From assembly GCA_965226485.1 (NCBI GenBank), contig OZ245363.1, forward strand, positions 2,170,817 through 2,234,816: a stretch of 64,000 bases of DNA. The letters are read 5' to 3'. A model generated the notes under the pieces. The model was not told the DNA's origin. It did no database searches and saw only the letters and a list, made by a program, of their open reading frames with translations. Source of the stretch: Spirochaetaceae bacterium. GTDB taxonomy: Bacteria; Spirochaetota; Spirochaetia; DSM-2461. Positions 20,630 through 61,517 of this stretch are shown piece by piece. A program made the translations under genes and the position numbers. The number at the start of each line of letters is the position of its first letter. Position 1 is the first letter of the stretch.

Positions 20630-20729
20630 AGGACTGTGTCAGAATGAGCCTTTGGTCCGCATGTGGCGTTGTCTGCCTGCAAACCAGATCCATCATTCTG
20701 ACCCACCCCCTGGATTCTGACACAGCCCC
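20630..20729 (+). mobile_element. MITE family copy with doubled right end
   Basis: GGACTGTGTCAGAAT...ATTCTGACCCACCCCCTGGATTCTGACACAGCCCC. Confidence 0.8.
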
Positions 20730-28701: not shown

Positions 28702-28857
28702 AAATGGATTAACTTCGCCGTAATAAGAAAGATTGAAAGGAAAGGAGCCCTGTGCGTCTGTCGGACCTATGTCTCACAATTCGATTTCTGCCCTTTCTCT
28801 TCAGTCGCATGCCTCTTTCACTGCATACTCCTTCCGAGCCGCCTTTGTTCGTTTTCC

Positions 28858-28958
28858 GGGGCTGTGCCAGAATGCACCTTTGGCCCGCATGTGGCGTTGC
28901 CTTGCCTGCAAACCAAATCCGTCATTCTGACCCAGCCCCTGGATTCTGACACAGCCCC
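28858..28958 (+). mobile_element. MITE family copy with doubled right end
   Basis: GGGGCTGTGCCAGAAT...ATTCTGACCCAGCCCCTGGATTCTGACACAGCCCC. Confidence 0.8.
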
Positions 28959-29296
28959 GGGCGGGGGATGAGCCCAACGGGCCCCCTCTTCTTCGCTATC
29001 GTTTAAGCTACGCTGAAGGTTTTGCCGCCTTGTTTCAGGAATAAATCATCAGAAATCGCCTCGAACACTCAATGTCCGACAGACTCCTAGAATAAATAGT
29101 CGCTAATTCACAGAGTTCCTCATACCTGATGGTGCTATTATACACTCCGAGAGCCTTCTCCACAACTATTTTTGAAAAGATATGATTAGGGAACACTTCC
29201 CCAATGCCCTACTCTGGTAGTCTGCTAACCGGCTCATTGCCAATCGGCGGGGGGAGTAGCGATATTTCCGCTACAATTCCTTGTGCCTATGTCATT

Positions 29297-29669
29297 GGCT
29301 CTTTGAACTACCTTATGGAATAAGATGGAAATAAAGTACTATTTGAAAATGGATGCTAGAGAGCCATATCAGCAAATACATGGAATTGTTACTAGGCCCT
29401 GATCTAAGCATAGACAATGATTGTGTGCATATATATCTGGAATGGCCGCAAGGGAAGTCGGCATTTGCCCAGAATGCGGTACTGTCTGCAAAATTCATGA
29501 CGGAAGAGAAGAGCGGACGTGGAGACATTTGGATACCTGTCAATTAAAGACGTATATTCACGGTCAAATTTCCCGAGTGAAATGTCCTGAATATAAAACC
29601 AAGACGATGAATATTCCATGGGCAAAAGAGACAAGCCGATTCACAGCACAGTTTCAAGCAGTGGCAATT
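29297..29669 (+). pseudogene. ISL3-family remnant (left end plus frameshifted, truncated transposase N-terminus)
   Basis: GGCTCT end; CPECG...HDGREERTWRHLDTCQ...IPWA..SRFT (zf-ISL3 type) split over frames. Confidence 0.8.
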
Positions 29670-29775
29670 GTCCTTATTCCTTCAATACAGAGGAATAAGA
29701 ACAATAATTATGTACAGTCGTTAAATATCATTAGACAAATAAAGCATTACAAATACAATTAACAAAAGGACGCTG

Positions 29776-30716
29776 ATGAAAACAATAGTAGATGACCAGA
29801 ATCACACACACTACAAGCTTCGACTCAGCGAGGTAGAAAAACCTGTGCCAAATGACAGTGAAGTTTTGTTGGAAGTTTTATCTACATCGCTAAATGCAGC
29901 GGACTACCGTTCAATGAAAATGGGGATAATTTCAAGGAAAAAGATAGTCGGATCTGCGGTATCAGGTAGAATAGAATCAGTTGGTAAAAACATCCAATAT
30001 TTCAAACCAGGTGATGAAGTAATCGGAGACCTTACAGATTTCGGATTTGGAGGATTAGCCGAATTCGCTGTAGCTCCTGAAAAAGCGTTCACTCACAAAC
30101 CTTCAAATGTTTCCTTTGAAGATGCTGCAACATTGCCTGTAGTAGCAATAACGGCACTGAAAGCACTGCGAGATAAAGGCAACATTCAAGATGGAAACGA
30201 TGTGTTAATTGTCGGTAGTACGGGCGGTGTTGGCAGCTATGCCTTGCAACTAGGCAAATGTTTTGGTGCAAATGTGACTGCAGTATGCAGTTCTAAAAAC
30301 ATGGAGCAAACAACTTCTTTGGGAGCAGATAAAGTAATAGACTATACAAAAAATGATTTTACAAAAAGTAGCGTTCGCTACGATCTCATTGTGGCAATCA
30401 ACGGCAATTATCCATTATTAGGTTACAGACGCATTCTACATTCAAAGGGCATATATGTTATGGTAGGCGGTACGCTTACCCAGATTTTTAAATCTATATT
30501 TTTCGGTTGGTTATTATCTTTTAGAGGAAATAAAATAAAAAATCTTTCTGCGAAATCTGATTCAAAAGACCTAGAGTACATTTCAAAACTCTTGAATGAA
30601 AATAAATAATGAAAGTCATTAATAAGCGTTACTCACTTGACAAGTCAGCAGAAGCAATGGATTATTTAAGTAAAGGACACTCGCCCGGCAAAGTGATTAT
30701 AAATGTTCAAAAATAA
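29776..30716 (+). pseudogene. NAD(P)-dependent alcohol dehydrogenase / quinone reductase (MDR family), frameshifted near the C-terminus
   Basis: SLNAAD, GSTGGVGSYALQL, LGADKVIDY; the tail KVINKRYSLDKSAEAMDYLSKGHSPGKVII is in another frame after 30609. Confidence 0.8.
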
Positions 30717-30769
30717 TAACGAATGTCCAACAAGACCTAGACTGCATTAGAACTCAACTTAACCAGAAC

Positions 30770-31026
30770 AAAAGAAGGAAAAGAAGCAGAGGAATTGTAT
30801 AATCAAGCCTTTGACAAATTCCAAAAAATATTGAATACGGGGCAATTTCCTGTAATCTTTTATGTATTTTTTCTTATAAGGGAGAAAAAGAACATGGTTT
30901 AAAATATTTGGATATTAGTCTCTCCAAAGATGAAATAATGTAGATTTTGTTCAAAAAAATGAAGATTGGAGATCCTTTCTTGAAGATAGTGATTTTATTA
31001 AGCTGATAAAACAGCATGTAAAATGA
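30770..31026 (+). pseudogene. C-terminal fragment of a TPR protein, multiply frameshifted
   Basis: GKEAEELYNQAFDKFQK / IEYGAISCNLLCIFSYKGEKEHGLKYLDISLSK / DFVQKNEDWRSFLEDSDFIKLI in successive frames. Confidence 0.5.
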
Positions 31027-31157
31027 AGCACGAAAGCACAGTATTTTGTATAAGTAATGGCAGGTAAAGAGGCAACTATTAAGATTTATAGCCTGCCAAA
31101 ACTGCATAGTGGTTTGACAGGAAACTAGTACTAGTCATATAATTTTCCGTTGAGGAT
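31026..31157 (+). repeat. attC-like site (degenerate)
   Basis: AAGCACGAAAGCAC..GTATAAGTAATGGCAGG ... CCTGCCA ... CATATAATTTTCC-GTTGAGG. Confidence 0.5.
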
Positions 31158-31176
31158 ATAAAAAAATAAAAAAACT

Positions 31177-31372
31177 GCATAACAAATCGTTGCACCTGAC
31201 ATCTTTCCGCTTTACTCAACAATGCAACTGAACTCAGCGATATGCAGAGAACTGCAATTGATGATTTTCTTGAGTAAAGGAAGCAAAAATGGTAAAAGAA
31301 AATATAAACAGTGGTTCTTATCCCTTCAATTCAGAGGTATAAGAACAATAATTATACACAGTCGTTGTATGC
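31177..31372 (+). repeat. 196-bp ORF-less attC-like unit, copy 1
   Basis: GCATAAC...GTTGTATGC; internal IRs CTTTACTCAA/TTGAGTAAAG and GTTCTTAT/ATAAGAAC; second copy 33263-33458, partial copy 29670-29728. Confidence 0.75.
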
Positions 31373-31412
31373 AATGTAAAATAACTGACAACCGTAACTT
31401 AATTGGAATAAT

Positions 31413-31784
31413 ATGAGCGGAAAAGCGGAATTTAAAAATGCGGACGAATATTTTGATGCCCAACCCGAAAATGTCAAAAAAATTCTTTTGGAATTAAAGG
31501 AATGTATTCTCAAAGCAGAACCAAATGCAACGGAACTGTTGAATTATAACATTCCTGCTTATGCTTTAGTCGAAAATGGAAAAAGGGAACAGCAGATTAT
31601 GATAGCGGGATATAAAAAACACGTTGGACTTTATCCACACCCAACGACTATGGAAAAATTCGACTCGGAATTGAAAGAATATAAACGAGCCAAAGGTTCG
31701 GTTCAGTTCCCATTAGACAAACCATTGCCGAAAGAACTGATTATCCGAATGATTAAGTATCGAATTGAACTATTAAAAGAGTAA
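31413..31784 (+). CDS. DUF1801/YdhG-like protein (cassette)
   Basis: DEYFDAQP, NYNIPAY, HVGLYP, KGSVQFPLDKPLPKELI. Confidence 0.85.
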   Translation: MSGKAEFKNADEYFDAQPENVKKILLELKECILKAEPNATELLNYNIPAYALVENGKREQQIMIAGYKKHVGLYPHPTTMEKFDSELKEYKRAKGSVQFPLDKPLPKELIIRMIKYRIELLKE

Positions 31785-31793
31785 AAAGACACT

Positions 31794-31857
31794 ACATACA
31801 ACAAAACCTATACGCAATACCCTTCGGGATAGTGCGCATAGGCAAACCGTTGGGTAC
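31794..31857 (+). repeat. attC-like site
   Basis: CATACAAC ... CCTATACGCA-loop-TGCGCATAGG ... GTTGGGTAC directly after a stop codon. Confidence 0.75.
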
Positions 31858-31876
31858 AACTATAAGAAACAAACAA

Positions 31877-32167
31877 GTGACAGAATTAGAACTGATAATT
31901 GACTTGCATAAAAATTCCGAGAAACAAAAGCCAGGTAGCGAAAATGATACGCTAAGAGCACCTGATTTATTGAATCTGCCGACTGACCAAAATTTGAAAG
32001 TGTCCGACATGGGTTGTGGTTCAGGTGGGCAGACGATTTCACTTGCCAAAAATTTGAACGGAAAAATCACGGCAGTTGACTTGTTTCCAGAGTTTTTAAA
32101 TGAAATCAATGAAAAATCACAGAAATTAGGATTGCAGATAAAATCGTTACGCTTGAAAAATCAATGA
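31877..32167 (+). pseudogene. Truncated copy of the class I SAM methyltransferase cassette
   Basis: Near-identical to 33478 onward (DMGCGSGG motif), frameshifted and cut at ~32170. Confidence 0.85.
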
Positions 32168-32224
32168 ATGAATAATCAAGATATCTGCCCGCTTTTTTTC
32201 ATGAAACTCATAGCCTCTACTGTC

Positions 32225-32378
32225 GCAAGCTACCCTGTGTATTCCTGTGACCTCATTGGCTAATTTGCCAACCAGTATTTGCCTGAGGGTAGTTATTCAT
32301 CCAGTCCTGTATTTCCCTGATTTTCTTCTTGCTGTAGCACCCTATATCGCAACCTTTGGGAATGGCTATACGTAATTT
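32225..32378 (-). pseudogene. IS30-family transposase C-terminal remnant
   Basis: Minus strand IPKGCDIGCYSKKKIREIQDWMNNYP matches the IS30 PKG...W.N..PR tail. Confidence 0.65.
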
Positions 32379-32419
32379 CTAAATCCTGCCTACTTCTGAA
32401 AATCCTCGCGGATTTTTAG

Positions 32420-32486
32420 TTTGGTGTGTACTTGCAAAGCTGAGTGCTAAACCACGCAACTACTTATAGCCGAGATCGTTTGCAAC
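32420..32486 (+). repeat. attC-like right arm
   Basis: CGCAACTACTTATAGCCGAGATC-GTTTGCAAC, similar to the right arm at 34341-34371. Confidence 0.6.
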
Positions 32487-32565
32487 ATAGTTGACCGTAC
32501 AAAGTGCAAGATAAAAATTTGAAAATATTGATTAATTTGTATCTTTCGGACTAAAATAATCTAAT

Positions 32566-32778
32566 ATGAGAACCAACGAGACAATAAAGGAGATTCAAAG
32601 ATTACCCATCCAAAAACGGATTCATGTGATTGAAAAAGCTATTCATTCGATTAGTAAACAAGAAGATGTAAACCAGATGGAAAGGGTAGCCGAAGCTTTA
32701 TATGCTGATTACAAATCCGATAAAGAATTGACTGCATTTACAAGCCTTGATTTTGAAGACTTTTATGAAGCAAGGTGA
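32566..32778 (+). CDS. Putative type II antitoxin
   Basis: 70 aa with acidic C-terminus (LTAFTSLDFEDFYE), overlapping the start of a PemK-like toxin. Confidence 0.65.
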   Translation: MRTNETIKEIQRLPIQKRIHVIEKAIHSISKQEDVNQMERVAEALYADYKSDKELTAFTSLDFEDFYEAR

Positions 32779-33110
32779 AGTTTGGCTAATAAATCTTGAT
32801 TCTACAATTGGAGCTGATATTATAAAACAAGACCTACAATAATTGTAAATGATGACTCGTTGGGTAAATTGCCTTTAAAGATCATTGTTCCGATTACGGA
32901 TTGGAAAGACAAACATGAAATTGCCCCATGGATGGTAAAAATAGAGTTATATTCGAAAAATAGGCTGACTAAAATCTCTTCTGCCGATTATTTTCAAGTT
33001 CGTTCTGTGTTACAAGAAAGATTTGTAAAAAACTGGGCAATATTTAAATGATAATAATGGATGAGATAAAGATCGGTTTATCGAGATTTTTGTCGATTAA
33101 AAATGAATAA
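32765..33110 (+). pseudogene. mazF: PemK/MazF toxin, two frameshifts
   Basis: MKQGEVWLINLDSTIGA / IIVNDDSLGKLPLKIIVPITDW...QVRSV..ERF in different frames. Confidence 0.8.
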
Positions 33111-33118
33111 ACTACGTT

Positions 33119-33251
33119 GCAGAACATGATATAGTTAATTGGCGGGCCGGTAGTATGCAAAAGTTATATACTTTTTATGTAAAGCAAATTGTAACTTGAC
33201 ACGGAAGTACTTTGAAATCGCCACCTAACCATAGGCCCATTCGTTGAGAGT
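33119..33251 (+). repeat. attC-like site
   Basis: GCAGAAC-ATGATATAGTTAATTGGCG ... CGCCACCTAACCATAGG..TTC-GTTGAGA after the toxin stop. Confidence 0.6.
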
Positions 33252-33262
33252 ATAAAAAAACT

Positions 33263-33458
33263 TTATAACAAACCGTTGCACATGACATCTTCCCGCTTTA
33301 CTCGACAATGCAGCTAAACTCAGCGATATACAGAGAACTGCAATTGATGATTTTCTTGAGTAAAAGAAGCAAAAATGGTAAAAGAAAAATATAACAGTGG
33401 TTCTTATCCCTCCAATTCAGATGTATAAGAACAATAACTATACACAGCTGTTGAGTAC
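33263..33458 (+). repeat. 196-bp ORF-less attC-like unit, copy 2
   Basis: Co-linear with 31177-31372 and the same length. Confidence 0.75.
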
Positions 33459-33477
33459 AACTATAAGAAACGAACAA

Positions 33478-34260
33478 GTGACAGAATTAGAACTAATAAT
33501 TGACTTGCATAAAAATTCCGAGAGACAAGGACCAGGCAGCGAAAATGATACGCTAAGAGCACTTGATTTATTGAATCTGCCGACTGACCAAAATTTGAAA
33601 GTGGCCGACATTGGTTGTGGTTCAGGTGGGCAGACGATTTCACTCGCCAAAAATTTGAACGGACAAATCACGGCAGTTGACTTGTTTCCAGAGTTTTTAA
33701 ATGACCTGAATGAAAAATCACAAAAGTTAGGATTTGCAGATAAAATTGTTACGCTTGAAAGATCAATGGACGACTTACCGTTCAAAAAGAATGAATTTGA
33801 CCTAATATGGTCAGAAGGTGCGATTTATAACATTGGGTTTGAAAACGGACTAAAAAAATGGAAGGACTACTTGAAAGTCGGCGGCTATTTGGCTGTGAGT
33901 GAAATCACTTGGATAACCCAATCTCGACCAAAGGAAATTGAAGAGTTTTGGAAAGCGGAATATCCTGAAATTGATACTGCTTCTAACAAAATTGGGCAAT
34001 TAGAAAATAATGGCTATTCGACTGTAGGATATTTCTATTTAAGTCAAGACAGTTGGATTGAGACCTATTATAAGCCAATGCAATCAAGGTTTAAGACTTT
34101 TCTGAAACGCAACGACAATTCAGAACTTGCAAGAAAGGTAGTTGAAGATAATCAAGCGGAAATCGAATTGTATCAAAAATTCAAAAATTATTATAGTTAT
34201 GGATTTTACATAGCGAGAAAAAATGAACAAAAGGTAGCACACAACAATGGCTGTACGTAA
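33478..34260 (+). CDS. Class I SAM-dependent methyltransferase (cassette)
   Basis: GTG start; VADIGCGSGG, FDLIWSEGAIY; stop lies inside the following attC. Confidence 0.9.
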   Translation: MTELELIIDLHKNSERQGPGSENDTLRALDLLNLPTDQNLKVADIGCGSGGQTISLAKNLNGQITAVDLFPEFLNDLNEKSQKLGFADKIVTLERSMDDLPFKKNEFDLIWSEGAIYNIGFENGLKKWKDYLKVGGYLAVSEITWITQSRPKEIEEFWKAEYPEIDTASNKIGQLENNGYSTVGYFYLSQDSWIETYYKPMQSRFKTFLKRNDNSELARKVVEDNQAEIELYQKFKNYYSYGFYIARKNEQKVAHNNGCT

Positions 34261-34371
34261 TGCAAGCGAAAGTGCTGATATGAAAGCAATTACATTAAAT
34301 AAACTAACAACTAAACGGAGGGTGAAATGCCTTGAAAGCCCGCACTACGCATGGCCGAGCCCGTTGCACAA
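34237..34371 (+). repeat. attC-like site
   Basis: GCACACAAC-AATGGCTGTACGTAATGC ... GCACTACGCATGGCCGAGCCC-GTTGCAAC. Confidence 0.7.
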
Positions 34372-34415
34372 CATTGTGCCGATAACGAAAACAAGAATTT
34401 TAAAAGTAATTCAAA

Positions 34416-34976
34416 ATGATATATATAATTAGCGGAACATCAAGGTCTGGAAAAACTCTGGCTGCTAAGAAAATGATGGAGCAGTCTGAAATTCCATATT
34501 TATCACTTGACTGGTTGATAATGGGATTTACAAACGGTATTCCTGAATATGGTATTCATGACAAATTATGGCCTAATGAAATTGCTGAAAGATTTTGGGA
34601 TTTCTTTAAAGCTATGCTTGAAAATATGATATGGTCAGAAACTGATTATATCATTGAGGGTGAGGCTGTACTCCCTGAACTTATATATGAATTATTAAAA
34701 AAGCATCCAGATAGGATTAAAGTGTGTTTCGTTGGCTATACGAATGTGAATATAAGTGAAAAGGTTGAGGATGTTTATCATTATAGTAAAGGGAGACATG
34801 ATTGGTTAACTAGCAAATCGAAAGACTATATCGAAAGGCATATAAGCAACATGATTGAATATAGTAAAAAGATAAAAAAATCTTGCAAAAAGTATGGTAT
34901 TAGATATTTTGATAATTCCAGAAAATTCACACAAGTCTTAGATGATGCAATAGAATATTTGATTAAAAAGGAATAG
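34416..34976 (+). CDS. P-loop NTPase / small-molecule kinase-like protein (cassette)
   Basis: N-terminal Walker A GTSRSGKT, IIEGEAVLP. Confidence 0.8.
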   Translation: MIYIISGTSRSGKTLAAKKMMEQSEIPYLSLDWLIMGFTNGIPEYGIHDKLWPNEIAERFWDFFKAMLENMIWSETDYIIEGEAVLPELIYELLKKHPDRIKVCFVGYTNVNISEKVEDVYHYSKGRHDWLTSKSKDYIERHISNMIEYSKKIKKSCKKYGIRYFDNSRKFTQVLDDAIEYLIKKE

Positions 34977-35106
34977 CAATGCGTAAAAAAGTAGCATCTA
35001 GCCACTTCAATGACTTTTTCAGCAAGCCCTACATTTTCCAGGGAATATGAAATTTATACTATTCTAAAAATGGCAGTTGAACTTTTTTTTTTTAGCGGGG
35101 AGCAGT

Positions 35107-35331
35107 GGGCACGCCCTGAAACCCATGCCCCGAAGCGTAATGCATCTTACGCCGGGCACGCCCAGAAATGCATAACCCGAAGCGTGATGCATCTCACGCC
35201 GGGCACGCCCAGTAATGCATCCCCCGATGCGAAATGAATCCCACGCCGGGCACGCCCTGAAACGCATCCCCCGAAGCGGAATGCATCTTACGCCGGGCAT
35301 GCCCAGAAACCCATCCCCCGAAGCGAAATGC
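35107..35331. repeat. Array B1: ~5 units of the 47-bp repeat
   Basis: Unit CGGGCACGCCCAGAAACGCATGCCCCGAAGCGGAATGCATCCCCCGC with variants. Confidence 0.9.
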
Positions 35332-35931
35332 TGTAATCTCGCAAAATATCCTAACCAATCTCCCCATGAATATCTCACACTCAGTTAACTAATTTTTCAC
35401 AACAGATAATCTAATTCTCAATCTCTCCGAACATAAAAAAAGGAGCAGGGCCCACGCAAATGCACACCTACTCCAATCTCAATCCCTCCCCAAAGGGAGG
35501 AACAATCTTGATACTTATTTGTCGGATAGATTTAGAAGAACTTAAAGACTCTGGAAAGGAATTTCCCTGGATCAACCCAGATAGCTGTCCTTGCTGTGGC
35601 GGATGTCGGCTCTGGGGCCATGGATTTGTCCTGAGATATTTCCATGGCTACACCGCAGGGTTATGGCTGAAACGGTACCGTTGTCCCGACTGCCATACTG
35701 TTCATACCTTACGTCCTGAAAAATATTCACTAGGTTTTCAGTATCCCTGGAAATGTCCAGGGTAATCACAATTCCCCATGGATAAGCCAGCCAGGGTAAT
35801 TAAGATTCCCCATACGATACAGCTGAGGGTAATCAAGATTCCCCATAAATCGGCCTCTAGGGTAATCACAATTCCCCACTCCCTTCCGTAGATCATTTAC
35901 AATACTCCTGCAACAAAACGCAGGAGTACAT

Positions 35932-37491
35932 ATGGGATACAGAAGGATGAATATTATCGATTTAAAATGCATTTACAGAAGACTACAGTCGGATCAAAGC
36001 ATAAAGACTATCAGCGAATCCGAAGGTTATGACCGAAAAACAATCAGGCATTATCGAGATGCCATGAAATCCTCCGGTCTGCTTGAATCACCTGATCCAT
36101 CGGAAGAGATCTTGGCGGAAAAGCTCTTTGAACTGCTTCCGAACAACGAACGAAGCAGCCCGATACACGATGAATTCCATCAGCACAAAGATGAGATCAT
36201 CCGGCTCACCACAAGGGAACAGGAGCCTATGAAGCTGAAGAGTGCGTTCATCGTCATCAAGCAAAAGTATGGTCTGGGGGGCAGTTACGAGAGCTTCAAA
36301 GTCTTCTCCCGCAAACATCATTTGACGGTTCCCGGGAAAAAGCAGTTCCCGCGACTGGAGTTGCCGCCGGGAGAGGAGACACAGATAGATTATGGTCGAG
36401 TCGGTTTGCATGAAGAGCCGGGAACAGGTAAGAACCGTGTCATCAATGCCTTCGCAGCCAAGCTTTCCTCCTCCAGGCTACCATTCATAGAGTTTACCTA
36501 TTTTCAGAACCAGGAATCCTTTGTCGGGAGCAATGACAATATGGTTCGTTTTTTTGGCGGAGTCACCGAATACCTGACCATTGACAACCTCAAGTCCGGT
36601 GTGATTAGAGCCGACATATACGATCCTCAGATCAACAAGGCATATGCGGAATGGGCGGAGCATCACGGTACTTTTATCAATCCCTGTATCAAGGCACACG
36701 CCAAAGGGAAGGCCAAGGTCGAAAGGATGATTCCTGAAGCCCGAGAGCTTTTTCGACGATTGAAAGAGCTTCATCCCTCCGCAACTCTCAAAGAGCTCAA
36801 TGAAGAGGCAAAGAAGTGGTGTCTGAATGAGTACGGACAGAAAAAGCATGGGACCACTGGCATCCCGCCTTATGAGGCTTTTATCGATGAAGAGAAGCCT
36901 AAGCTAAAACCTATAAATCCTATTCGCTTTGAGATCCCGGTCTGGAAATCTGCAAACGTCCATATGGATCAGTTTGTCAGTTTTGAGAAAAAGCGCTTTT
37001 CCATGCCCTTGTCCTATCGCAGAAAGATCGTGCACTGCCGACGGGCTGGCAGTCTGGTGAAGATCTATGATGAGAATTATCTCTTTATCAGGCAATACGT
37101 TACTACATCCAGGAAAGTGTACTGTACCGACGGTGATTTCCCGCCGGATCAACGTGCGATGATCAAAGGCGATTACCCGCAGTTTCTGATCGGACGGGCA
37201 GCGGCCTACGGATCTGGATCGAAACAACTTGTGGAACAGATCCTGCGGTCTCATGCATTTATAAACGCCCGTATCGCCAAGGGAATGATCACACTCTTCG
37301 AGCAGTACAAGGACCTGCCGTTGCTGCAAGATGTGTGTAGCAAGGCGGCGACCTTCAAGGTGCGCCAACCGAAGCACTTGAAGATCATGCTGGAAGATGA
37401 AAAGAAACAGAAACACCTGGTATTTGAAGTCCCTCGCTCAACGGCGGGTGAAGCCATGGTCAGAGATATTCGAGAATACATGAGCAATTAA
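35932..37491 (+). CDS. istA: IS21 transposase IstA
   Basis: GEETQIDYG, TIDNLKSGV, KGKAKVER DDE motifs. Confidence 0.95.
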   Translation: MGYRRMNIIDLKCIYRRLQSDQSIKTISESEGYDRKTIRHYRDAMKSSGLLESPDPSEEILAEKLFELLPNNERSSPIHDEFHQHKDEIIRLTTREQEPMKLKSAFIVIKQKYGLGGSYESFKVFSRKHHLTVPGKKQFPRLELPPGEETQIDYGRVGLHEEPGTGKNRVINAFAAKLSSSRLPFIEFTYFQNQESFVGSNDNMVRFFGGVTEYLTIDNLKSGVIRADIYDPQINKAYAEWAEHHGTFINPCIKAHAKGKAKVERMIPEARELFRRLKELHPSATLKELNEEAKKWCLNEYGQKKHGTTGIPPYEAFIDEEKPKLKPINPIRFEIPVWKSANVHMDQFVSFEKKRFSMPLSYRRKIVHCRRAGSLVKIYDENYLFIRQYVTTSRKVYCTDGDFPPDQRAMIKGDYPQFLIGRAAAYGSGSKQLVEQILRSHAFINARIAKGMITLFEQYKDLPLLQDVCSKAATFKVRQPKHLKIMLEDEKKQKHLVFEVPRSTAGEAMVRDIREYMSN

Positions 37492-37507
37492 CAAGAAGGA
37501 GAAAACT

Positions 37508-38275
37508 GTGAAAGAAATGCAAACACTTGAGGCCAATCTTCGTCGGTTGAGAATGCCGGGGATACTGGAGAACCTCGATCTACGGCTCCGGGAAGCTGAA
37601 GATGGCGGACTCGGTTATCTGGATTTTTTGATTCTGCTGATTCAAGATGAGGTTGTAAATCGCGATTCCAACATCCTGAGCAAACGTCTGAAAGTCGGAA
37701 GCTTGAGTCCCAGAATGACTTTTGAGAACTTTAACTACCGGTTCAATATGGCAACCATTCCGCAGCAGACCATCCGGGATCTGGCGACTTGCCGCTTTAT
37801 CAGGGACCATAGAAGTCTGGTTCTGTGCGGCCCTCCCGGAATTGGTAAGACCCACATAGCACAGGCCATCGGTCATGAGGTGTGCCGCCGGGGAGGAGAT
37901 GCCCTATTCGTCAAAACCCAGAAACTTTTAGAGTGTCTGACAGACGACTCCTACCCGAGGAGAGTGGCCCGGTTATGGAAGCAGATCAAGACAATGGACT
38001 TGCTGGTTCTCGATGATTTTGGTTTTCGACGTTATGACTCGAAAGAATCCGAGTTGCTTTATGCGCTGGCAGACGAACGTTTGGGAAGTGGTTCGACCAT
38101 CATCACATCCAACCGTCCGCCGCAAGACTGGTACGGTGTCTTTCCCGATCCGGTCATCGGCGGGGCGGTGCTGGATAGACTGGTTTCCGGTGCTATTAAG
38201 ATCATTGTCGAGGAAGCTAAGTCTTACAGGATGCATGGAGTATTCGGTGAGGGGACAGAGGGAAAAGGCTCTTGA
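37508..38275 (+). CDS. istB: IS21 helper ATPase IstB
   Basis: GPPGIGKTH, LLVLDDFG, ITSNR, AVLDRL. Confidence 0.95.
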   Translation: MKEMQTLEANLRRLRMPGILENLDLRLREAEDGGLGYLDFLILLIQDEVVNRDSNILSKRLKVGSLSPRMTFENFNYRFNMATIPQQTIRDLATCRFIRDHRSLVLCGPPGIGKTHIAQAIGHEVCRRGGDALFVKTQKLLECLTDDSYPRRVARLWKQIKTMDLLVLDDFGFRRYDSKESELLYALADERLGSGSTIITSNRPPQDWYGVFPDPVIGGAVLDRLVSGAIKIIVEEAKSYRMHGVFGEGTEGKGS

Positions 38276-38510
38276 CTTATTATAAAATCGGTTCTACGAT
38301 TTGACTACCGGAAGGGGGTGGGAATTTAAATTACCCTGGGTGGGGAATATGATTACCCTCGACACTGGAAAGAAATCCAATCTTCATTAGAACACAAGCT
38401 CAAGGGTCTCACATTCCGAATAGAGCTATCCCAGCAGTGCCAGCAGTATTGGATGAAAGCACTTCTGTTCCAACGAAAACAAGTTTCTAATTGGCCGGGG
38501 CTATGGTAGG

Positions 38511-38714
38511 ATGTTTGAAGCTCCCATTGGGCTGATCGGGATGAATGTCACTCTTCGTTATGAAAATTACGATCACATTGAGGTTTTCCTGGATGATGAA
38601 CCCAGGGGATATCTTTCCCTTCTCAACGAGCATAGCAATAGTAAAATTCAAAGAGCAACTCACTTTGAAAAGCAAAAAGGGTCTCTCTTTGAGAAGGCTG
38701 CGGGGGATGAATAA
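38511..38714 (+). pseudogene. C-terminal remnant of a Mu-like/DDE transposase (catalytic core deleted)
   Basis: FEAPIGLIGMNVTLRYENYDHIEVF resembles the Mu-transposase C-terminal beta domain; overlaps the ExeA start. Confidence 0.55.
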
Positions 38715-39385
38715 TGGAAAACCTCAGACACTTCTTTGGCTTGAAAAAAGATCCCTTTTCCCAGAATGTTGCGGTTCGGGATTTATACCCTCTGCCAGCA
38801 TTGGACCCCCTGAAACAGAGAGTCAGCTTTGCAGTACAACAAAAGGCTATCACTGTAATTACCGGTGATGTGGGAGCAGGGAAATCCACATGATCATTGA
38901 TGAGGCTCACCTGTTTAAACACAATGTTTTTGCTCAGCTACACACCCTGTTGCAGTTTGACTATGATTCCAAACCGGTTATGCCAAGTTTAGTCGCCCCC
39001 CGTGCGGGGGCGTGGATTGTTGCAGTTTGAATATGATTCCAAACCGGTTATGCCAGTTATCCTATGTGGATAGGACGGATTGATGGACCATCTGATGACC
39101 AGTGTAGCTAGGCCTTTGGCATCACGGGTTTTAGGAAAGAATCATCTGGAATCAATTAAAAGAGAAGTCATGGAGAAATACTTGAATCATCATCTTGCTT
39201 TGGCTGGTTTAGAAAAACCGATATTTGCAGAAAATGCTGTTTATGCGATTCATCAGAAATCGGGTGGCATCCTACGAAGGGCTAATTCATTGGCAAAAGT
39301 AGCTATGCTTGCTACCGCCATGGAAAGGGAAGAGTCTGTTTCTGCTGAACATGTTCGAGTCGCTGCTACAGAGCTTACCCTGTAA
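38707..39385 (+). pseudogene. ExeA-family AAA+ ATPase, internally deleted and interrupted
   Basis: GDVGAGKST fused out of frame to IIDEAH at ~38890; internal stop; C-terminus SGGILRRANSL. Confidence 0.8.
38992..39019 (+). CRISPR. Single truncated type I-C-like CRISPR repeat (not an array)
   Basis: GTCGCCCCCCGTGCGGGGGCGTGGATTG equals the first 28 nt of the common I-C repeat that ends GAAAC; no cas genes or second repeat. Confidence 0.6.
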
Positions 39386-39388
39386 TAA

Positions 39389-39424
39389 CATAATCCGGAG
39401 GGAGGGCCGGATTATGTTCTTTTT
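39389..39424 (+). terminator. Rho-independent terminator
   Basis: Perfect 10-bp IR CATAATCCGG/CCGGATTATG followed by TTCTTTTT. Confidence 0.75.
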
Positions 39425-39486
39425 GAATTGAGAAATTGTCTAACTGATCGTGAAAGGGTTTGGGTGGAATAATTTGAGAAACTACA

Positions 39487-40452
39487 CCGGGTGCACCCAA
39501 AAACGCATGCCCCGAAGCGAAATGCCTCCCCCGCCGGGCACGCCCAGAAACGCATCCCCCGAAGCGGAATGCATCTTACGCCGGGCATGCCCAGAAACCC
39601 ATCCCCCGAAGCAAAATGCATCCCCCGGCGGGCACGCCCAGAAACGCATGCCCCGAAGCGAAAGGCCTCCCCCGCCGGGCACGCCCAGAAACGCATGCCT
39701 CGAAGTGAAATGCATCCCCCGGCGGGCACGCCCAGAAACGCATGCTTCGAAGCGGAATGCATCTCCCGCCGGGTGCGCCCAGAAATGCATGCTCCGAAGC
39801 GGAATGCATCTTACGCCGGGCATGCCCAGAAACGCATGCCCCGAAGCGAAATGCCTCCCCTGCCGGGCACGCCCTGAAACGCATGCCCCGATGCGAAATG
39901 AATCTCACGCCGGGCACGCCCTGAAACGCATCCCCCGAAGCGAGATGCATCTCACGCCGGGCACGCCCTGAAATGCATGCCCCGAAGCGAAAGGCCTCCC
40001 CCGCCGGGTGCACCCAAAAACGCATGCCCCGAAGCGGAATGCATCTTACGCCGGGCATGCCCTGAAACGCATGCCCCGAAGCGAAATGCCTCCCCCGCCG
40101 AGCACGCCCAGAAACCCATCCCCCGAAGCAAAATGCATCCCCCGCCGGGCACGCCCAGAAACGCATGCTTCGAAGCGAGATGCATCTCCCGGAGGGCACG
40201 CCCAGTAATGCATGATCCGAAGCGTGATGCATCTCACGCCGGGCACGCCCAGTAATGCATGATCCGAAGCGTGATGCATCTCACGCCGGGCACGCCCAGT
40301 AATGCATCCCCCGATGCGAAATGAATCCCACGCCGGGCATGCCCAGAAACCCATCCCCCGAAGTGAAATGCATCCCCCGGCGGGCGCGCCCAGAAATGCA
40401 TGCTTCGAAGCGAGATGTATCCCCCGCCGGGCACGCCCTGATACCCATGCCC
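39487..40452. repeat. Array B2: ~20 units of the 47-bp repeat
   Basis: Same unit as B1 and B3. Confidence 0.95.
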
Positions 40453-40454
40453 AC

Positions 40455-40555
40455 CGCAAACGCCCCAAACACCGGCTTTATGAAGTTGGCGGCTTTTTTT
40501 CGTAAGCGAAAAAGGTGATAGCTTTACAAAGTCCGCATGATTCGACTTGTTAGAA
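40455..40555 (-). repeat. Canonical integron attC site (~101 bp)
   Basis: Minus strand TTCTAAC-AAGTCGAATCATGCGGAC...GCCGGTGTTTGGGGC-GTTTGCG, overlapping the gene's TAA. Confidence 0.75.
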
Positions 40556-44062: not shown

Positions 44063-44101
44063 GCAGAATCCAGGGGGAGGGTCAGAATGATGGATTCGGT
44101 T
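44063..44101 (-). mobile_element. MITE family partial copy
   Basis: CAGAATCCAGGGGGAGGGTCAGAATGATGGATT matches the doubled end of other copies. Confidence 0.6.
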
Positions 44102-44154
44102 CTGCTCGCCGGACTGGGTTTTATTCCACCAGGTTTTGCGGTGAAGAATTTAGA

Positions 44155-56329: not shown

Positions 56330-56491
56330 GGGACTGTGTCAGATTCCAGGGGGTGGGTCAGAATGATGGATTTGGTCTGCAGGCAAGGCGGCGAAAAGTT
56401 CTGAAAGCGGAGTGTACATGCTGTACATGAGCATTTCAGGTTTTTTCGCCAACGCCGTATGCGGGCCAAAGGCGCATTCTGACACAGCCCC
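56330..56491 (-). mobile_element. MITE family copy (one internal unit, doubled end), reverse orientation
   Basis: GGGACTGTGTCAGATT...ATTCTGACACAGCCCC; internal part is the reverse complement of the 4268 unit. Confidence 0.85.
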
Positions 56492-57676: not shown

Positions 57677-57997
57677 CTATTCTATCGACAATACACGGGA
57701 AAGGGCGACAGATCGCTTGCGGTTGTTGACTTCTACTTGGACCTTGTTCGCAAAAATACCGAGAACCGTCGCTTCTACAACTTTGTTAGTCGGACTACTC
57801 TGTTTGAACGAGATAGTTTGCCCAATTTTAATCTTATTCCTCAACTTACTTGCGTCTTGTTCTTTCAATGTCCGTTGAACAGCTCTTTCCTTCAACCGAA
57901 GCTCTATAGCGACTTCATTTTTCAATATCTTTAAGTCTGGAACACTCAAAGATCCGAGGACATTCGCAAATTTTAATGCTTTTCTAGGTCTTGCCAT
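57677..57997 (-). CDS. Small basic hypothetical protein
   Basis: SD AAGGAG, consensus promoter upstream; K/R-rich, helical N-half and beta-rich C-half. Confidence 0.75.
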   Translation of the reverse strand: MARPRKALKFANVLGSLSVPDLKILKNEVAIELRLKERAVQRTLKEQDASKLRNKIKIGQTISFKQSSPTNKVVEATVLGIFANKVQVEVNNRKRSVALSRVLSIE

Positions 57998-58058: not shown

Positions 58059-58552
58059 GAAATATAGAATAAAAAAATTCCACTATGGTGAAATTCTTCT
58101 GAAAAGACCACTTGTTGGGGCCCTCAAAAGCAGTTTTCGGAGGCTGACAGCACCGTAACAGCCTGGAGATATTGTCAAAAGCTATGGATAGGATGAAAAA
58201 AAAGCCAATCCTCTTGTAAAATAATAGTGTTCAAACCAATGCAATCGGGAGGTATTCTATGGATAAAGAAACTACCACAGGAACAGAATTTTGTAAGAGA
58301 GCGACAGATGGTCTTCGCAGGGAATTGTATTACGGGAGGGAACTCGAAATATGCTTCAGTGGGCACTGAAACACGAGAGTGAAGAACATCTTCAGAAACA
58401 CTCTCAAACCGATAAAATAGTCATCGTCTTGCTGTTCGCAATGGCTATCATCCCGTAAAGGAAGATTGTCACCGGCATAGGTCCAATGCCTGTCAAAGTT
58501 CCTCGGGGAGATAACCGAGAAGCGGGTCCATATAGAGAGAAGCCATTTACAG

Positions 58553-58690
58553 CGGATGTTCCAGCGGAATTGGTACTGTTTCTCATAGCTATCTATTTAT
58601 ATCAAAAGATATTAACGCCTATTTTTCAGTTTCGTTTCAGTATGTACTATTACCTCCCGATTATAAGCTATAGTCGTCGGCAAAATCACA
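58553..58690. repeat. Repeat family C, copy 3 (abuts array B3)
   Basis: Aligns by eye to 1-150. Confidence 0.75.
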
Positions 58691-61102
58691 GTGAAATGCC
58701 TCCCCTGGCGGGCACGCCCAGAAACGCATGCTTCGAAGCGGAATGTATTTCCCGGCGGGCACGCCCAGAAACGCATGCCCCGAAGTGGAATGCATCCCCC
58801 GCCGGGCACGCCCAGAAACGTATGCTTCGAAGCGGAATGCCTCCCCCGGCGGGCACGCCCAGAAACGCATGCTTCGAAGCGGAATGCCTCTTACGCCGGG
58901 CACGCCCAGAAACGCATGCTTCGAAGCGGAATGCCTCTCACGCCGGGTGCGCCCAAAAACGCATGCCCCGAAGCGTGATGCCTTCCCCGGCGGGCACGCC
59001 CAGAAACGCATGCTTCGAAGCGGAATGTATTTCCCGCCGGGCACGCCCTGAAACGCATGCTCCGAAGCGGAATGTATCTCCCGGCGGGCACGCCCAGAAA
59101 CGTATGCTTCGAAGCGGAATGCATCTTACGCCGGGTGCACCCAAAAACGCATGCCCCGAAGCGTGATGCCTTCCCCGGCGGGCACGCCCAGAAACGCATG
59201 CTTCGAAGCGGAATGTATTTCCCGCCGGGCACGCCCTGAAACGCATGCTCCGAAGCGGAATGTATCTCCCGGCGGGCACGCCCAGAAACGTATGCTTCGA
59301 AGCGGAATGCATCTTACGCCGGGTGCACCCAAAAACGCATGCCCCGAAGCGTGATGCCTTCCCCGGCGGGCACGCCCAGAAACGCATCCCCCGAAGCGGA
59401 ATGCATCCCCCGGCGGGCACGCCCAAAAACGCATGCCCCGAAGCGAAATGCATCCCCCGGCGGGCACGCCCAGAAACGCATCCCCCGAAGCGTGATGCCT
59501 CCCCCGCCGGGCACGCCCAAAAACGCATGCCCCGAAGCGGAATGCATCCCCCGGCGGGCACGCCCAAAAACGCATGCCCCGAAGCGTGATGCATCCCCCG
59601 GCGGGCACGCCCAGAAACGCATGCCCCGAAGCGAAATGCCTCCCCCGCCGGGCACGCCCAGAAACGCATGCTTCGAAGCGGAATGCCTCCCCCGCCGGGC
59701 ACGCCCAAAAACGCATGCCCCGAAGCGTGATGCATCCCCCGGCGGGCACGCCCAGAAACGCATGCTCCGAAGCGGAATGCTTCCCCCGGCGGGCGCGCCC
59801 AGAAACGCATGCCCCGAAGCGTGATGCCTCCCACACCGGGCACGCCCAGAAACGCATCCCCCGAAGCGTGATGCCTTCCCCGGCGGGCACGCCCATAAAC
59901 GCATCCCCCGAAGCGGAATGCCTCTCCCGCCGGGCACGCCCAGAAACGTATGCTTCGAAGCGGAATGCCTCCCCCGCCGGGCACGCCCAGAAACGCATGC
60001 TTCGAAGCGGAATGCCTCCCCCGCCGGGCACGCCCAGAAACGCATCCACCGAAGCGTAATGCATCTTACGCCGGGCACGCCCAGAAATGCATGCTTCGAA
60101 GCGGAATGTATCCCCCGGCGGGCGCGCCCAGAAACGCATGCCCCGAAGCGAAATGCATCCCCTGGCGGGCACGCCCAGAAACGCATGCCCCGAAGTGAAA
60201 TGCATCCCCCGGCGGGCACGCCCAGAAACGCATGCCCCGAAGCGAAATGCATCCCCCGGCGGGCACGCCCAGAAACGCATCCCCCGAAGCGTGATGCCTC
60301 CCACACCGGGCACGCCCAGAAACGCATCCCCCGAAGCGTGATGCCTTCCCCGGCGGGCACGCCCAGAAACGCATGCTTCGAAGCGGAATGTATTTCCCGC
60401 CGGGCACGCCCTGAAACGCATGCTCCGAAGCGGAATGCCTCTCCCGCCGGGTGCACCCAAAAACGCATGCCCCGAAGCGGAATGCCTCCCCCGCCGGGCA
60501 CGCCCAGAAACGCATGCTTCGAAGCGGAATGCATCCCCCGGCGGGCACGCCCAGAAACGCATCCCCCGAAGCGGAATGCATCCCCCGGCGGGCACGCCCA
60601 GAAACGCATCCCCCGAAGCGAAATGCATCCCCCGGCGGGCACGCCCAGAAACGCATGCCTCGAAGCGTGATGCATCTCCCGGCGGGCACGCCCAGAAACG
60701 CATGCTTCGAAGCGGAATGTCTCTTACGCCGGGCACGCCCAGAAACGCATGCTTCGAAGCGGAATGCCTCTTACGCCGGGCACGCCCAGAAACGCATGCC
60801 CCGAAGCGTGATGCATCCCCCGCCGGGCACGCCCAGAAACGTATGCTTCGAAGCGGAATGTATCTCCCGCCGGGCACGCCCAGAAACGCATGCCCCGAAG
60901 CGAAATGCTTCCCCCGCCGGGCACGCCCAGAAACGCATGTCCCGAAGCGGAATGCCTTCCCCGGCGGGCACGCCCAGAAACGCATGCCCCGAAGCGTGAT
61001 GCCTCTCACGCCGGGCACGCCCAGAAACGCATGCTCCGAAGCGTGATGCATCCCCCGGCGGGCACGCCCAGAAACGCATGCTCCGAAGCGTGATGCATCC
61101 CC
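58691..61102. repeat. Array B3: ~51 units of the 47-bp repeat
   Basis: Continuous 47-bp periodicity over ~2.4 kb. Confidence 0.95.
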
Positions 61103-61276
61103 TCCAAGTGCGATTTCACCCAGATACCTCAAGATTACCCATCATAGATAATCTGTTTCCTGTATTAGGCTATAGTGCCCCGAAGATTTGGGGTGGTTCA
61201 ATAGATGGATGCATGTGTTTGCTCTCTACCACTAAGCTTGAGGACACTATAAGAGGTATAAGGAATCTTCTGCAAA

Positions 61277-61505
61277 GATGGTGAATTCGTTGGATGCTAC
61301 ATGAAAATGAAGGATTTTGTTCTTTTTTCATCCACAGCATCTGGCAATAACCCTGAAACGGGGATGTCGCTACTCACCTCGGTGATGAGCAATGAGCCGG
61401 TTAACAGGCTCCCAGTTTAAGGCACTGGAGAGAAAAGTCCGCCCCAAAGAGGGTCACCCAGATATTGATTTCCGAATTTACGGAAAACGAGATATTGCGT
61501 GAATT
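61277..61505 (+). ncRNA. Probable group II intron domain I fragment (IIB/CL-like), truncated
   Basis: GGATGCTACATG...CATCCACAGCATCTGGCAATAACC.TGAAACGGG..GTCGC...GAGCAATGAGC...CAGTTTAAGGCACTGG.GAGAAAAGTC...AAACGAGAT resembles, from memory, IIB intron DI; no RT or domain V/VI seen. Confidence 0.4.
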
Positions 61506-61517
61506 AGAAATTGCGAA

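Follow-up and report, generated by a model that had tools for sequence, protein, structure and literature searches.

The sopC centromere of the F plasmid is built of 12 copies in tandem of a 43-bp repeat, and every copy contains an inverted-repeat site for SopB. In proteobacteria, the REPs of the REP/BIME and REPIN group each form one imperfect hairpin; they mostly alternate in orientation and are linked to a RAYT transposase. The BrickBuilt elements of Porphyromonas gingivalis are minisatellites inside a MITE and are built of 23-nt units (Klein et al. 2015, PMC4596501). In a systematic survey, only 2.7% of bacterial satellites are longer than 1.5 kb, and dispersed families of long non-coding repeats are given for 1 of 119 species, Leptospira interrogans, with repeats of 46, 37 and 69 nt (Subirana & Messeguer 2019, PMC6749651). 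We analysed a stretch of 64,000 nucleotides from a Spirochaetaceae bacterium, called the window below. An earlier note, made from the sequence alone, had described in it a palindromic satellite with a 47-bp unit, present at three loci. The arrays of this unit are the following.

35107-35331, + strand: array B1, 4.8 units, cut at unit position 37 (TRF and unit listing).
About 39487-40475, + strand: array B2, 20 full units and a degenerate terminal unit at 40429-40475 (TRF and unit listing).
58691-61102, + strand: array B3, 51.2 head-to-tail 47-bp units (TRF and unit listing).

TRF gave a period of 47 for B3 at 58695-61102 (51.2 copies, 86% matches, 0% indels; consensus unit GGGCACGCCCAGAAACGCATGCCCCGAAGCGGAATGCATCCCCCGGC) and the same period for B2 at 39496-40452 (20.4 copies). 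With the 4.8 copies of B1 this makes ~76 units in the window, the number given before, all on the + strand and with 0 indels. According to the unit listing, the first unit of B3 is partial and the last one a hybrid. A 20-mer derived from the unit, with up to 3 mismatches allowed, had 72 matches, all on the + strand and none outside the arrays, with 0 expected by chance. The distance between the dyad cores of neighbouring B3 units is 47 bp in 50 of 50 intervals. The period, the confinement of the matches to the arrays and the uniform spacing confirm that the 47-bp satellite exists. Its GC content is 0.66, against ~0.45-0.49 in the flanks and ~47% in the surrounding genome region. The units adjoin directly, without spacers, and are thus head-to-tail units of the size range of a minisatellite or VNTR (about 10-100 bp).

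The families of L. interrogans are similar in that they belong to a spirochaete, are intergenic and non-coding, repeat one unit at several loci and have a period that is not a multiple of 3 (46 versus 47). They differ in size: among the satellites listed they measure 316-713 bp with 4-18 copies, whereas here we find 2.4-4.5 kb and 51-95 units. The L. interrogans genome has 35% GC and the arrays here have 66% (PMC6749651). Because the composition differs, homology between the two is unlikely. The earlier proposal that GC-rich, non-coding satellites of several kb, present at several loci, are unusual in bacteria agrees with this survey.

Tandem repeats are known to cause assembly errors, and long - strand open reading frames traverse the array. 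Both points would favour reading it as an assembly artefact, a degenerate CRISPR array or a protein-coding repeat. However, the array has the same junctions in three independent assemblies and in independent runs, and the left junction is spanned by Illumina-derived unitigs from independent runs. The depths of variant-specific unitigs (~1x, 2x, 3x) agree with the copy numbers in the window. The array resembles a CRISPR in its regular period, partly palindromic repeat, GAAAC motif and single orientation, but it has no spacers, its point substitutions are spread across 31 of the 47 columns, and the window contains no cas genes. Near the array in L019 lies the true CRISPR locus of the species, of type II, whose 36-nt repeat GTTGCGGGTTGAACCATTTTTCAAAGCGATTATACT recurs with a 66-bp period and is unrelated to the 47-bp unit; a link with this CRISPR-Cas9 locus was considered and rejected on that ground. 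A protein-coding tandem repeat should have a period that is a multiple of 3 and an open reading frame with homologues or domains. The period of 47 is not divisible by 3 and the arrays lie between genes. The 668-aa - strand frame in the array has no homologues among 5.8 billion proteins and only noise-level matches in Pfam. The arrays are thus non-coding by each of these measures. The artefact, CRISPR and coding explanations are already refuted for practical purposes, and we give them a negligible probability.

The surroundings of the arrays contain several further features.

35332-39486, unstranded: 4.15-kb mobile insertion separating B1 from B2 (Pfam, inverted repeats, absence in L021).
35932-37491 and 37508-38275: istA and istB of an IS21-family element inside this insertion (Pfam).
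39387-39428: second terminator-like hairpin, upstream of B2 in the inserted DNA (consensus scan, predicted).
40472-40499, + strand: terminator-like hairpin and T-run directly after B2 (consensus scan, predicted).
58552-58690, + strand: left boundary of B3, the end of a truncated IS4-like element of the DDE_Tnp_1 family (alignment).
61103-61517, unstranded: unique right flank from B3 to the ilvC stop codon, conserved in same-species contigs.

The 4.15-kb insertion ends in imperfect TGTA...TACA terminal inverted repeats, with a score of 32 against a shuffled mean of 18; this score was reached by 3 of 500 shuffles. Its Pfam domains are IstB and the Mu-transposase C-terminal domain, and the IS21 inverted repeats lie at ~35754-35776 and 38342-38364. 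At the same locus in L021 the insertion is absent and there is one unsplit array of 21 units. Units 1-4 of B1 are identical to units 0-3 of this array, and the terminal units of B2 are identical to its terminal units. Because a closed genome of the same species carries a single array at this place, B1 and B2 are, as judged from the aligned units, the left and the right part of one ancestral array. Thus, two of the three loci proposed earlier are one array cut by an insertion. The same orientation (+ strand) holds throughout, but only 2 loci are independent. With 2 independent loci in the window, the 47-bp unit forms a family.

The IS4-like segment at the left of B3 aligns closely with the left end of a full 1.88-kb IS in L019, and its junction with B3 is also present in L022 and L023. 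The right flank is also where, at ~61250, a full IS4-like element is inserted in other strains, with duplication of TTATAG. The neighbours of the arrays are ilvC, ORF106, an epimerase gene, glmS, ORF167, ORF186 and a methyltransferase gene. The arrays occupy intergenic DNA at the 3' ends of genes, and both loci are downstream of - strand genes. Other repeats in the 64 kb are IS21, IS4-like and ISL3 fragments and a second satellite of 4.3 kb. A dispersed palindromic element of 120 bp is also present in the window.

We compared the arrays between strains. The window has 51 units in B3, against 95 at the locus L022 of a closed genome and 42 in L023, while the flanks are shared or near-identical and the neighbouring ORF106 protein is identical. 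In the window and L022, identical units line up in four collinear runs (9, 7, 2 and 2 units), with block indels of up to 21 units between them. In L019, a block of 5 units is duplicated and 4-5 terminal units are missing. The array formed by B1 and B2 has 21 units in L021 and ~25 in the window, with identical end units and a reshuffled interior. The length differences are mostly whole units or multi-unit blocks with conserved edges, as expected from recombination or slippage. Such variation in mainly whole-unit steps at a conserved locus is typical of a minisatellite or VNTR. Higher-order structure in B3 is limited to one duplication of 4-5 units and one of 2 units, and the identity of its units showed no lag periodicity.

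The unit had been described as constant scaffolds alternating with three short slots, each drawn from a small set of alleles in a combinatorial way. The allele sets were confirmed for the two short slots: positions 21-24 carry GCCC in 25 units, GCTT in 20, CCCC in 16 and GCTC in 6, and positions 31-33 carry GGA in 33, GTG in 17 and GAA in 17. The third slot has 20 alleles and not four. The scaffolds are not constant: variation affects 31 of the 47 columns, with 6 forms of the core and 10 of columns 11-20. Nor do the slots vary independently, since linkage is strong, as between columns 23-32, 42-43 and 43-46. The mean r2 drops from 0.27 for columns 1-2 nt apart to 0.025 for those more than 20 nt apart, and all four gametes are present in 69 of 105 column pairs. 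Because linkage decays with distance within the unit, the slots are mostly shared point variants combined as recombined haplotypes, not free combinations. The 38 minor alleles comprise 22 transitions and 16 transversions; 20 are common to both loci and 18 are private. The nested palindromes of the earlier description are all there: GCATGC occurs in 49 units and GCTTCGAAGC in 20, and GGGC..GCCC is present as well. A G-quadruplex or i-motif was also considered. It was set aside, as the - strand G-runs are broken in many units by common slot variants and are not conserved.

Taken together, we regard the array as a member of a lineage-specific family of non-coding minisatellites (VNTR-type satellite DNA) in the chromosome of a marine Spirochaetaceae, evolving by point mutation and in-register unequal recombination or slippage, and we estimate the probability of this reading at about 0.6. 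Units would be gained and lost by replication slippage and/or by unequal homologous recombination between misaligned units. A small number of old point substitutions, for the most part C>T and G>A, may underlie the slot pattern, and crossovers inside the unit or short conversion tracts would reshuffle them. Each array would then partly homogenise its own flavour. As neutral or selfish DNA, the arrays may be kept and may spread in this genome, which also contains many IS elements and other repeats, and they may be tolerated landing sites for IS insertion. Most likely, they would have no dedicated cellular function. The earlier note had named as contrary to its proposal a variation that point mutation and slippage explain, in which structural covariation, transcription and a binding partner are all lacking; this is largely the outcome here. 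Several observations count against the minisatellite as purely neutral DNA. The unit length is kept tightly (0 indels in ~76 window units), and the arms of the core are steady, with symmetric variants. The recurrence of the allele sets genome-wide and a total of ~1,000 units also count against the preferred reading, since so many units need a means of seeding new loci and none was identified.

This total comes from k-mer depth. The pooled depth of the array in DNA relative to single-copy sequence was ~3,400:1 in run X1 and 2,600:1 in run X2. Such depth suggests ~1,000 units genome-wide, and 2,600-3,400 times the single-copy level implies many further loci. The arrays may thus make up perhaps 1-4% of the 3.5-Mb genome. 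They are restricted in distribution: exact-pattern scans of GTDB genomes, JGI metagenome contigs and IMG/VR found no arrays, and the isolated exact matches were chance occurrences in coding or unrelated DNA. The unit had no match in blastn searches against plasmids and phages. In a relative with 90% IlvC identity, the syntenic spacer is 276 bp of unrelated DNA and is free of the array, and 21-22 kb from each of two related genomes contain no tandem repeats.

The abundance of the units could also mean that a dedicated mobile or templated system (MITE-borne, of REP/RAYT type, rolling-circle or RT-templated) carries or produces the arrays and seeds them around the genome. The same allele sets are seen genome-wide in pooled unitigs, across the ~1,000 inferred units. 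At other loci, array units are joined to different repeats, for example the 120-bp element, as seen in unitigs and in metatranscriptome contigs, and one other locus has the 11-mer AGCGGGGAGCA in common with the left flank of B1. IS ends abut the arrays. Like BrickBuilt, the arrays consist of spacerless units, are intergenic and many-copied and are restricted to a species. However, the leader and tail of BrickBuilt are conserved, their ends are inverted repeats and the element has promoter activity, whereas the two loci here lack common flanks, inverted repeats and an evident promoter. The search for a shared leader or tail or inverted repeats around the two loci gave scores at or below the shuffled means. 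The REP, BIME and REPIN elements are likewise high-copy, GC-rich, partly palindromic and located at gene 3' ends, and some REPs are IS targets. Here the units are all direct (72 of 72 matches on the + strand), no stable hairpin is supported by compensation, and there is no RAYT in the window. The 64-kb window contains no genes for RT, HUH/RAYT, Nop or rolling-circle Rep proteins, and the strain differences are whole-unit blocks that resemble recombination or slippage. The idea of iterative templated synthesis is therefore not borne out, and we consider any dedicated mobile or templated system very unlikely.

We also assessed whether the unit could be a protein-binding site. In this explanation, it is a dyad site (GGGC-N2-GCCC, perhaps with GCATGC, TTCGAA and ATGCAT) for a dimeric DNA-binding protein, and the array is a centromere-like, nucleoid-organising or titration platform in which the fixed spacing of 47 bp (~4.5 helical turns) would set the phasing of the protein. 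In the core, G1, G3 and C8-C10 are invariant and G2 is nearly so. Among 62 distinct units, the pair 4-7 is CG in 56, UA in 4 and UG in 2 and is never unpaired, so that a compensatory C-G to T-A change is present. The core variants GGGTGCACCC, GGGCGCGCCC and GGGCATGCCC retain or improve the dyad symmetry, and 3 of the 4 variant forms of positions 4-7 are perfect palindromes (hypergeometric p ~0.03, an estimate). The L022 units with the flipped core GGGCGTGCCC preserve the same duplex site in the opposite orientation. This symmetry hints that selection may act on a symmetric site. The unit length is also strict: pooled unitigs from four samples contain no indels at 5% or more, as in the window, and the length variants in L022 are three 45-bp units and one 46-bp spacing. 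The arrays resemble sopC-type centromeres in their direct repeats of ~45 bp, short putative dyad motif and fixed period. They differ in being chromosomal, in occupying more than one locus, in having no adjacent genes of parA/parB type and in a copy number that varies between strains.

Other observations count against such a platform. The centre of the core is asymmetric in 49 of the 62 distinct units, and the commonest core has a central A.C. In the 64-kb window, no par gene or other candidate binding gene adjoins either locus. Outside the arrays, ~60 kb of the window contain no solitary core, and neither do 21 kb from a relative; a regulon model was rejected for this reason. One locus varies from 42 to 95 units between strains, the arrays are missing from related species, and IS elements interrupt and truncate them. 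We therefore treat a binding platform as possible but unlikely.

The earlier note had also proposed a processed RNA array. Transcription could be - strand read-through from ilvC or glmS-ORF167, since both loci are downstream of - strand genes, giving a G/U-rich RNA that would form unit-length pieces or an R-loop or terminator-like insulator. Three consensus units fold more stably on the - strand than on the + strand (-87 versus -51 kcal/mol), and a scan predicted that some - strand units look like weak intrinsic terminators. Two independent metatranscriptomes (X18, X32) contain short contigs of array sequence, and the few small-RNA read pairs in run X16 have a uniform orientation. However, the minimum-free-energy folds consist mainly of pairing between units, and the consensus helices from RNAalifold are weak on both strands. 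Pairing in the candidate hairpins amounts to 62-73%, and a slid control does equally well. In three candidate helices, pair counts showed no compensatory changes except at core pair 4-7. Rfam gave no match across the window at gathering thresholds and none in the array at E<=1, and ARAGORN found no tRNA or tmRNA. The promoter scan found nothing convincing leading into either array.

The reads point the same way. The pooled array to single-copy ratio in metatranscriptomes X18 and X32 is ~6-10:1, and in metatranscriptome contigs the array is ~300-600 times rarer than its copy number in DNA would predict. Per unit, the RNA is hundreds of times below that of the neighbouring genes, which trace DNA or read-through would fit. 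Small-RNA runs X15-X17, in which the organism is nearly absent, gave 0 to 7 array reads, the 7 coming from ~876 million letters, and runs X11-X14 gave none. This low signal is evidence against abundant RNA and not proof of silence. With no Rfam family, weak folds, no compensation in the hairpins and so little RNA, the evidence is against a processed RNA array, and we think a transcribed function for the arrays very improbable.

Long non-coding satellite families are considered rare in bacteria, and this genome is an unusual case, in which arrays of one 47-bp unit reach 2.4-4.5 kb and two further repeat families occur within these 64 kb. The birth, spread and turnover of satellites in a compact genome can be studied here in a natural system, for which several strain alleles are already at hand. 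For this spirochaete, which is uncultured and possibly host-associated, the arrays are very fast strain markers. Short-read assemblies break at them, and in at least one public annotation long open reading frames are called inside them. On the evidence of unit length and core symmetry, there is also a slim chance that the 47-bp unit is a phased recognition module, whose hundreds to thousands of copies would form a chromosomal loading or titration system, centromere-like or nucleoid-organising. Selection would then act on the unit length and the core symmetry, and the copy number would drift freely. If the strict length and the symmetric core do reflect protein binding, the arrays would be a new kind of chromosomal organising element.

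Tandem Repeats Finder (TRF) delimits three runs of the 47-bp unit in the window:

35107-35331, + strand: array B1, period 47, 4.8 copies
39496-40452, + strand: array B2, period 47, 20.4 copies
58695-61102, + strand: array B3, period 47, 51.2 copies, 86% matches, 0% indels

The 47-bp satellite proposed in the earlier note is real. Besides the TRF period of 47, the distance between successive cores (the dyad GGGC-N2-GCCC of the unit) is 47 bp in 50 of 50 intervals of B3. A unit-derived 20-mer, with up to 3 mismatches allowed, has 72 matches, all on the + strand and all inside the arrays, against a chance expectation of 0. Written out, the units align in perfect register. The GC content of the array is 66%, compared to about 45-49% in its flanks. 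The allele sets listed in that note for two short slots (short variable positions of the unit) were recovered in our unit tally, as were its palindromes. Its constant scaffolds were not: 31 of the 47 columns are polymorphic and 16 invariant, and 62 of the 74 full units are distinct. The third slot holds 20 alleles instead of a small set, and the slots are linked rather than freely combined. An assembly artefact is ruled out for B3 by independent Illumina-type unitigs and by depths that match copy number. The flanks are covered by unitigs of runs X1, X2, X6 and X4, those of X1 and X6 also running across the left junction. Variant-specific unitigs in X1 have depths of about 15, 27-31 and 42 at a single-copy depth of 16; the depth of 42 belongs to a two-unit variant present three times in the window.

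The arrays were said to occupy three loci. It turned out that there are two, and B1 and B2 are one array. The closed same-species genome (ENA ERZ25069865 ctg6097_24x_c, 3,522,747 bp) carries 21 units in one unbroken array, flanked by the 186-aa and the 167-aa ORF. Its first four units are the B1 units of the window, and its last ones, down to the degenerate terminal unit, are those that close B2. The window has 4,155 bp inserted into this array after unit position 37, and eight unit bases, read directly from the unit listings, are missing at the junction. The insertion contains:

35332-39486: the whole insertion, a composite of mobile DNA with inverted ends TGTA...TACA; the closed genome lacks it
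35460-35765: DUF6431-like ORF
35754-35878 and 38316-38364: multiple 20-33-bp terminal repeats of an IS21-family element (istA/istB)
39387-39418: strong terminator, preceded by two unannotated ORFs

The terminal inverted repeats are imperfect (score 32, shuffled mean 18; 3 of 500 shuffles reached this score). B3 also borders on mobile DNA. In all strains its left border is formed by a 140-bp remnant, the truncated end of a diverged IS4-like copy, and the junction is identical in all same-species contigs examined. In some strains a complete 1.88-kb IS4-like copy (DDE_Tnp_1, inverted repeat CGGATGTTCC...) lies about 150 bp to the right of B3 with a TTATAG duplication (10836-12713 of contig L019; 2693-4570 of L022, the B3 locus of the closed genome). 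It is not in the window, where its insertion site corresponds to about 61250, between ilvC and B3.

The window is otherwise an ordinary bacterial chromosome with fab genes, trpS, leuS, glmS, ilvC, argF, an RND pump and ABC transporters; no RT, HUH, Nop, ParB or cas genes were found in its 64 kb. Its LeuRS has named relatives that are all marine or host-associated Spirochaetaceae (Spirochaeta sp. LUC14_002_19_P3, 79% identity; S. isovalerica, 72%; the spirochaete endosymbiont of Olavius algarvensis, 71%). Both array loci are intergenic, at gene 3' ends. B1/B2 lies between the 186-aa ORF and the 167-aa ORF, the latter downstream of glmS, and B3 has the ilvC stop codon (61518) on one side and the promoter region of a 106-aa ORF on the other. 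This ORF (57677-57997, - strand) belongs to no Pfam family and is kept beside ilvC in a relative. A promoter-like site, TTGACC-17-TATAGT, stands at 58058-58030, and four RNA-labelled runs hold contigs matching the ORF at roughly 92-94%. A possible acquired island is the low-GC stretch at 29000-35000 (GC 0.33-0.40 versus about 0.48), in which lie an ISL3 zinc-ribbon fragment (29421-29762), an ADH, a DUF1801 protein and a methyltransferase. The same-species contig L020 is without about 1.9 kb of it (31361-33252), and past 35003 runs into different sequence.

Between strains the arrays differ mostly by whole-unit blocks. B3 has 51 units in the window, 95.0 over 4,458 bp in L022 and 42 in a second strain (L023, a 3x-coverage contig whose unit sequences may hold errors). 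Between the window and L022, stretches of 9, 7, 2 and 2 units are identical and collinear, with block indels of up to 21 units between them. L019 carries a duplicated 5-unit block and is missing 4-5 terminal units that the window has. In B1/B2 the end units are identical between strains and the interior is largely reshuffled. A minisatellite would behave in this way if it evolved by slippage in register or by unequal recombination. The variation inside the window agrees with this reading. Of the 38 minor alleles, 22 are transitions and 16 transversions, C>T being the most frequent change; 20 are common to both loci and 18 private to one. Linkage between variable columns drops with distance, from a mean r2 of 0.27 at 1-2 nt to one of 0.025 beyond 20 nt, and all four gametes occur in 69 of 105 column pairs. 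Pooled unitigs of four samples carry the same alleles genome-wide at frequencies that differ from the window: the genome-wide majority has A at position 43 with C at 46, whereas B3 favours CCCCCGG, and the TT allele of slot 1, common in B3, falls below the 5% listing threshold. Allele sharing, linkage decay and differing frequencies together indicate that the slot-wise combinatorial look is old polymorphism recombined within units and partly homogenised per array.

As an array, the unit is absent from every collection searched: GTDB (185,579 species genomes) gave 3 isolated chance matches, JGI metagenome contigs gave 14 isolated matches, all in unrelated sequence, and no array was found in GTDB, IMG/VR, plasmids or phages. 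A relative with 90% IlvC identity keeps the order argF-ilvC-ORF106-epimerase, and its spacer between ilvC and the 106-aa ORF has no array and consists of 276 bp of unrelated sequence. TRF found no tandem repeats in 21.4 kb of this relative or in 22.5 kb of a second one. The satellite is therefore young and confined to the species-level lineage of the window. Contigs of the related species L018 and L024 measure 2.12 and 2.52 Mb, compared to the 3.52-Mb genome of the window's species. These smaller sizes, and the lack of tandem repeats in the 21-22 kb of each relative, fit the view that repeats and IS elements have recently expanded in the lineage. Pooled over all unitigs at least 85% like the unit, array depth peaks at 55,700 in X1 (single-copy depth about 16) and at 40,300 in X2 (about 15), values that overlap between short unitigs could inflate 2-4 fold. 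Allowing for this and assuming one genome per sample, we infer about 1,000 units genome-wide (roughly 800-3,500), or some 40-160 kb.

Other repeats accompany the satellite:

14372-18659: array A, a second satellite of about 4.3 kb; periods about 121, 184 and 369 bp; 74-88% self-similar; unrelated to the 47-bp unit
4291-4650: three tandem copies of a 120-bp dispersed element with a long internal hairpin
56346-56491, - strand: the same element
13016-13092, 20631-20713, 28854-28942 and 44070-44105: short forms matching only its two end segments

Array A contains GCACRGAGG sub-repeats. The L020 interval matching 14142-18915 is only 832 bp, so array A is also hypervariable. The 120-bp element looks MITE- or REP-like (hairpin MFE -51 kcal/mol on the - strand). 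In metatranscriptome contigs no other part of the region is represented as strongly (depth up to 244 in X18). Small-RNA reads of run X16 match the element, and contigs from other loci connect it with 47-bp units.

Several known identities were rejected. A protein-coding repeat does not agree with a period not divisible by 3; long - strand ORFs arise because the unit is GC-rich and stop-free, and the 668-aa one has no homologue among 5.8 billion proteins and only noise-level Pfam matches. A CRISPR array would contain spacers, and there are none. The species' type II CRISPR-Cas locus (cas9 of 1141 aa, cas1, cas2; L019 1-7000) lies just past the right end of the window, beyond argF, and its repeat is an unrelated 36-mer, GTTGCGGGTTGAACCATTTTTCAAAGCGATTATACT, in about 33 copies with a 66-bp period. 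Nor is the array MITE-borne in the manner of BrickBuilt, as its flanks have no inverted repeats and are not common to both loci. Rfam gave no match, and consensus folds are weak on both strands. In the 17-20/34-37 stem the double change was never seen, and the slot2-slot3 helix is 62% paired, equal to a control slid by two columns. Pooled array depth in the metatranscriptomes X18 and X32 reaches 46-58 at its peak, compared to 5-8 for the 106-aa ORF; this array-to-neighbour ratio of 6-10, against 2,600-3,400 in DNA, is a crude measure from contig depth and speaks against abundant RNA only, not against all transcription. The small-RNA runs contain almost none of this organism.

The main rival explanation is that the arrays are a protein-binding platform. 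Unit length is held very tightly, which is odd since homopolymer runs in the unit should favour indels. Length variants are rare: L022 has one 46-bp spacing and, within 4835-9292, three consecutive 45-bp units that lost 2 bp (AACGCATGC to AACATGC) and have the core flipped to GGGCGTGCCC, in an otherwise 47-bp array. This block shows that such variants can arise and amplify locally. In the window the GGG and CCC arms of the core are invariant. Core pair 4-7 passes from C-G to T-A via a T.G intermediate and always stays paired. Of the four variant forms of positions 4-7, three are perfect palindromes, and a further form, found in L022, is an exact flip of the core site. By our own estimate each oddity is of modest significance (p about 0.01-0.04). 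A dimeric protein-binding site would be predicted to show these features, and descent from a few master units could produce them too. No candidate binder genes are encoded nearby, and the core was not found as a solitary site outside the arrays, either in about 60 kb of the window or in 21 kb of a relative. We consider a binding platform unlikely. Most likely, at a probability of roughly 0.6, the arrays are neutral or selfish DNA carried by a genome that is rich in IS elements and permissive towards repeats.

Among described kinds of repeat, the arrays come nearest to the dispersed non-coding satellite families with long repeats. A survey covering 119 bacterial species found such families only in Leptospira interrogans, with 46-, 37- and 69-nt repeats, and satellites longer than 1.5 kb made up only 2.7% of the bacterial satellites in it (PMC6749651). 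L. interrogans is a spirochaete too, and the 47-bp family shares all the defining features of this kind that were tested. It stands apart by its larger scale, with arrays that reach 2.4-4.5 kb and a total of perhaps about 1,000 units, by its GC-rich unit and by its extreme strain turnover. No sign of a new molecular mechanism has emerged so far. The 47-bp satellite is a striking case in the architecture of bacterial genomes and is useful for marking strains.
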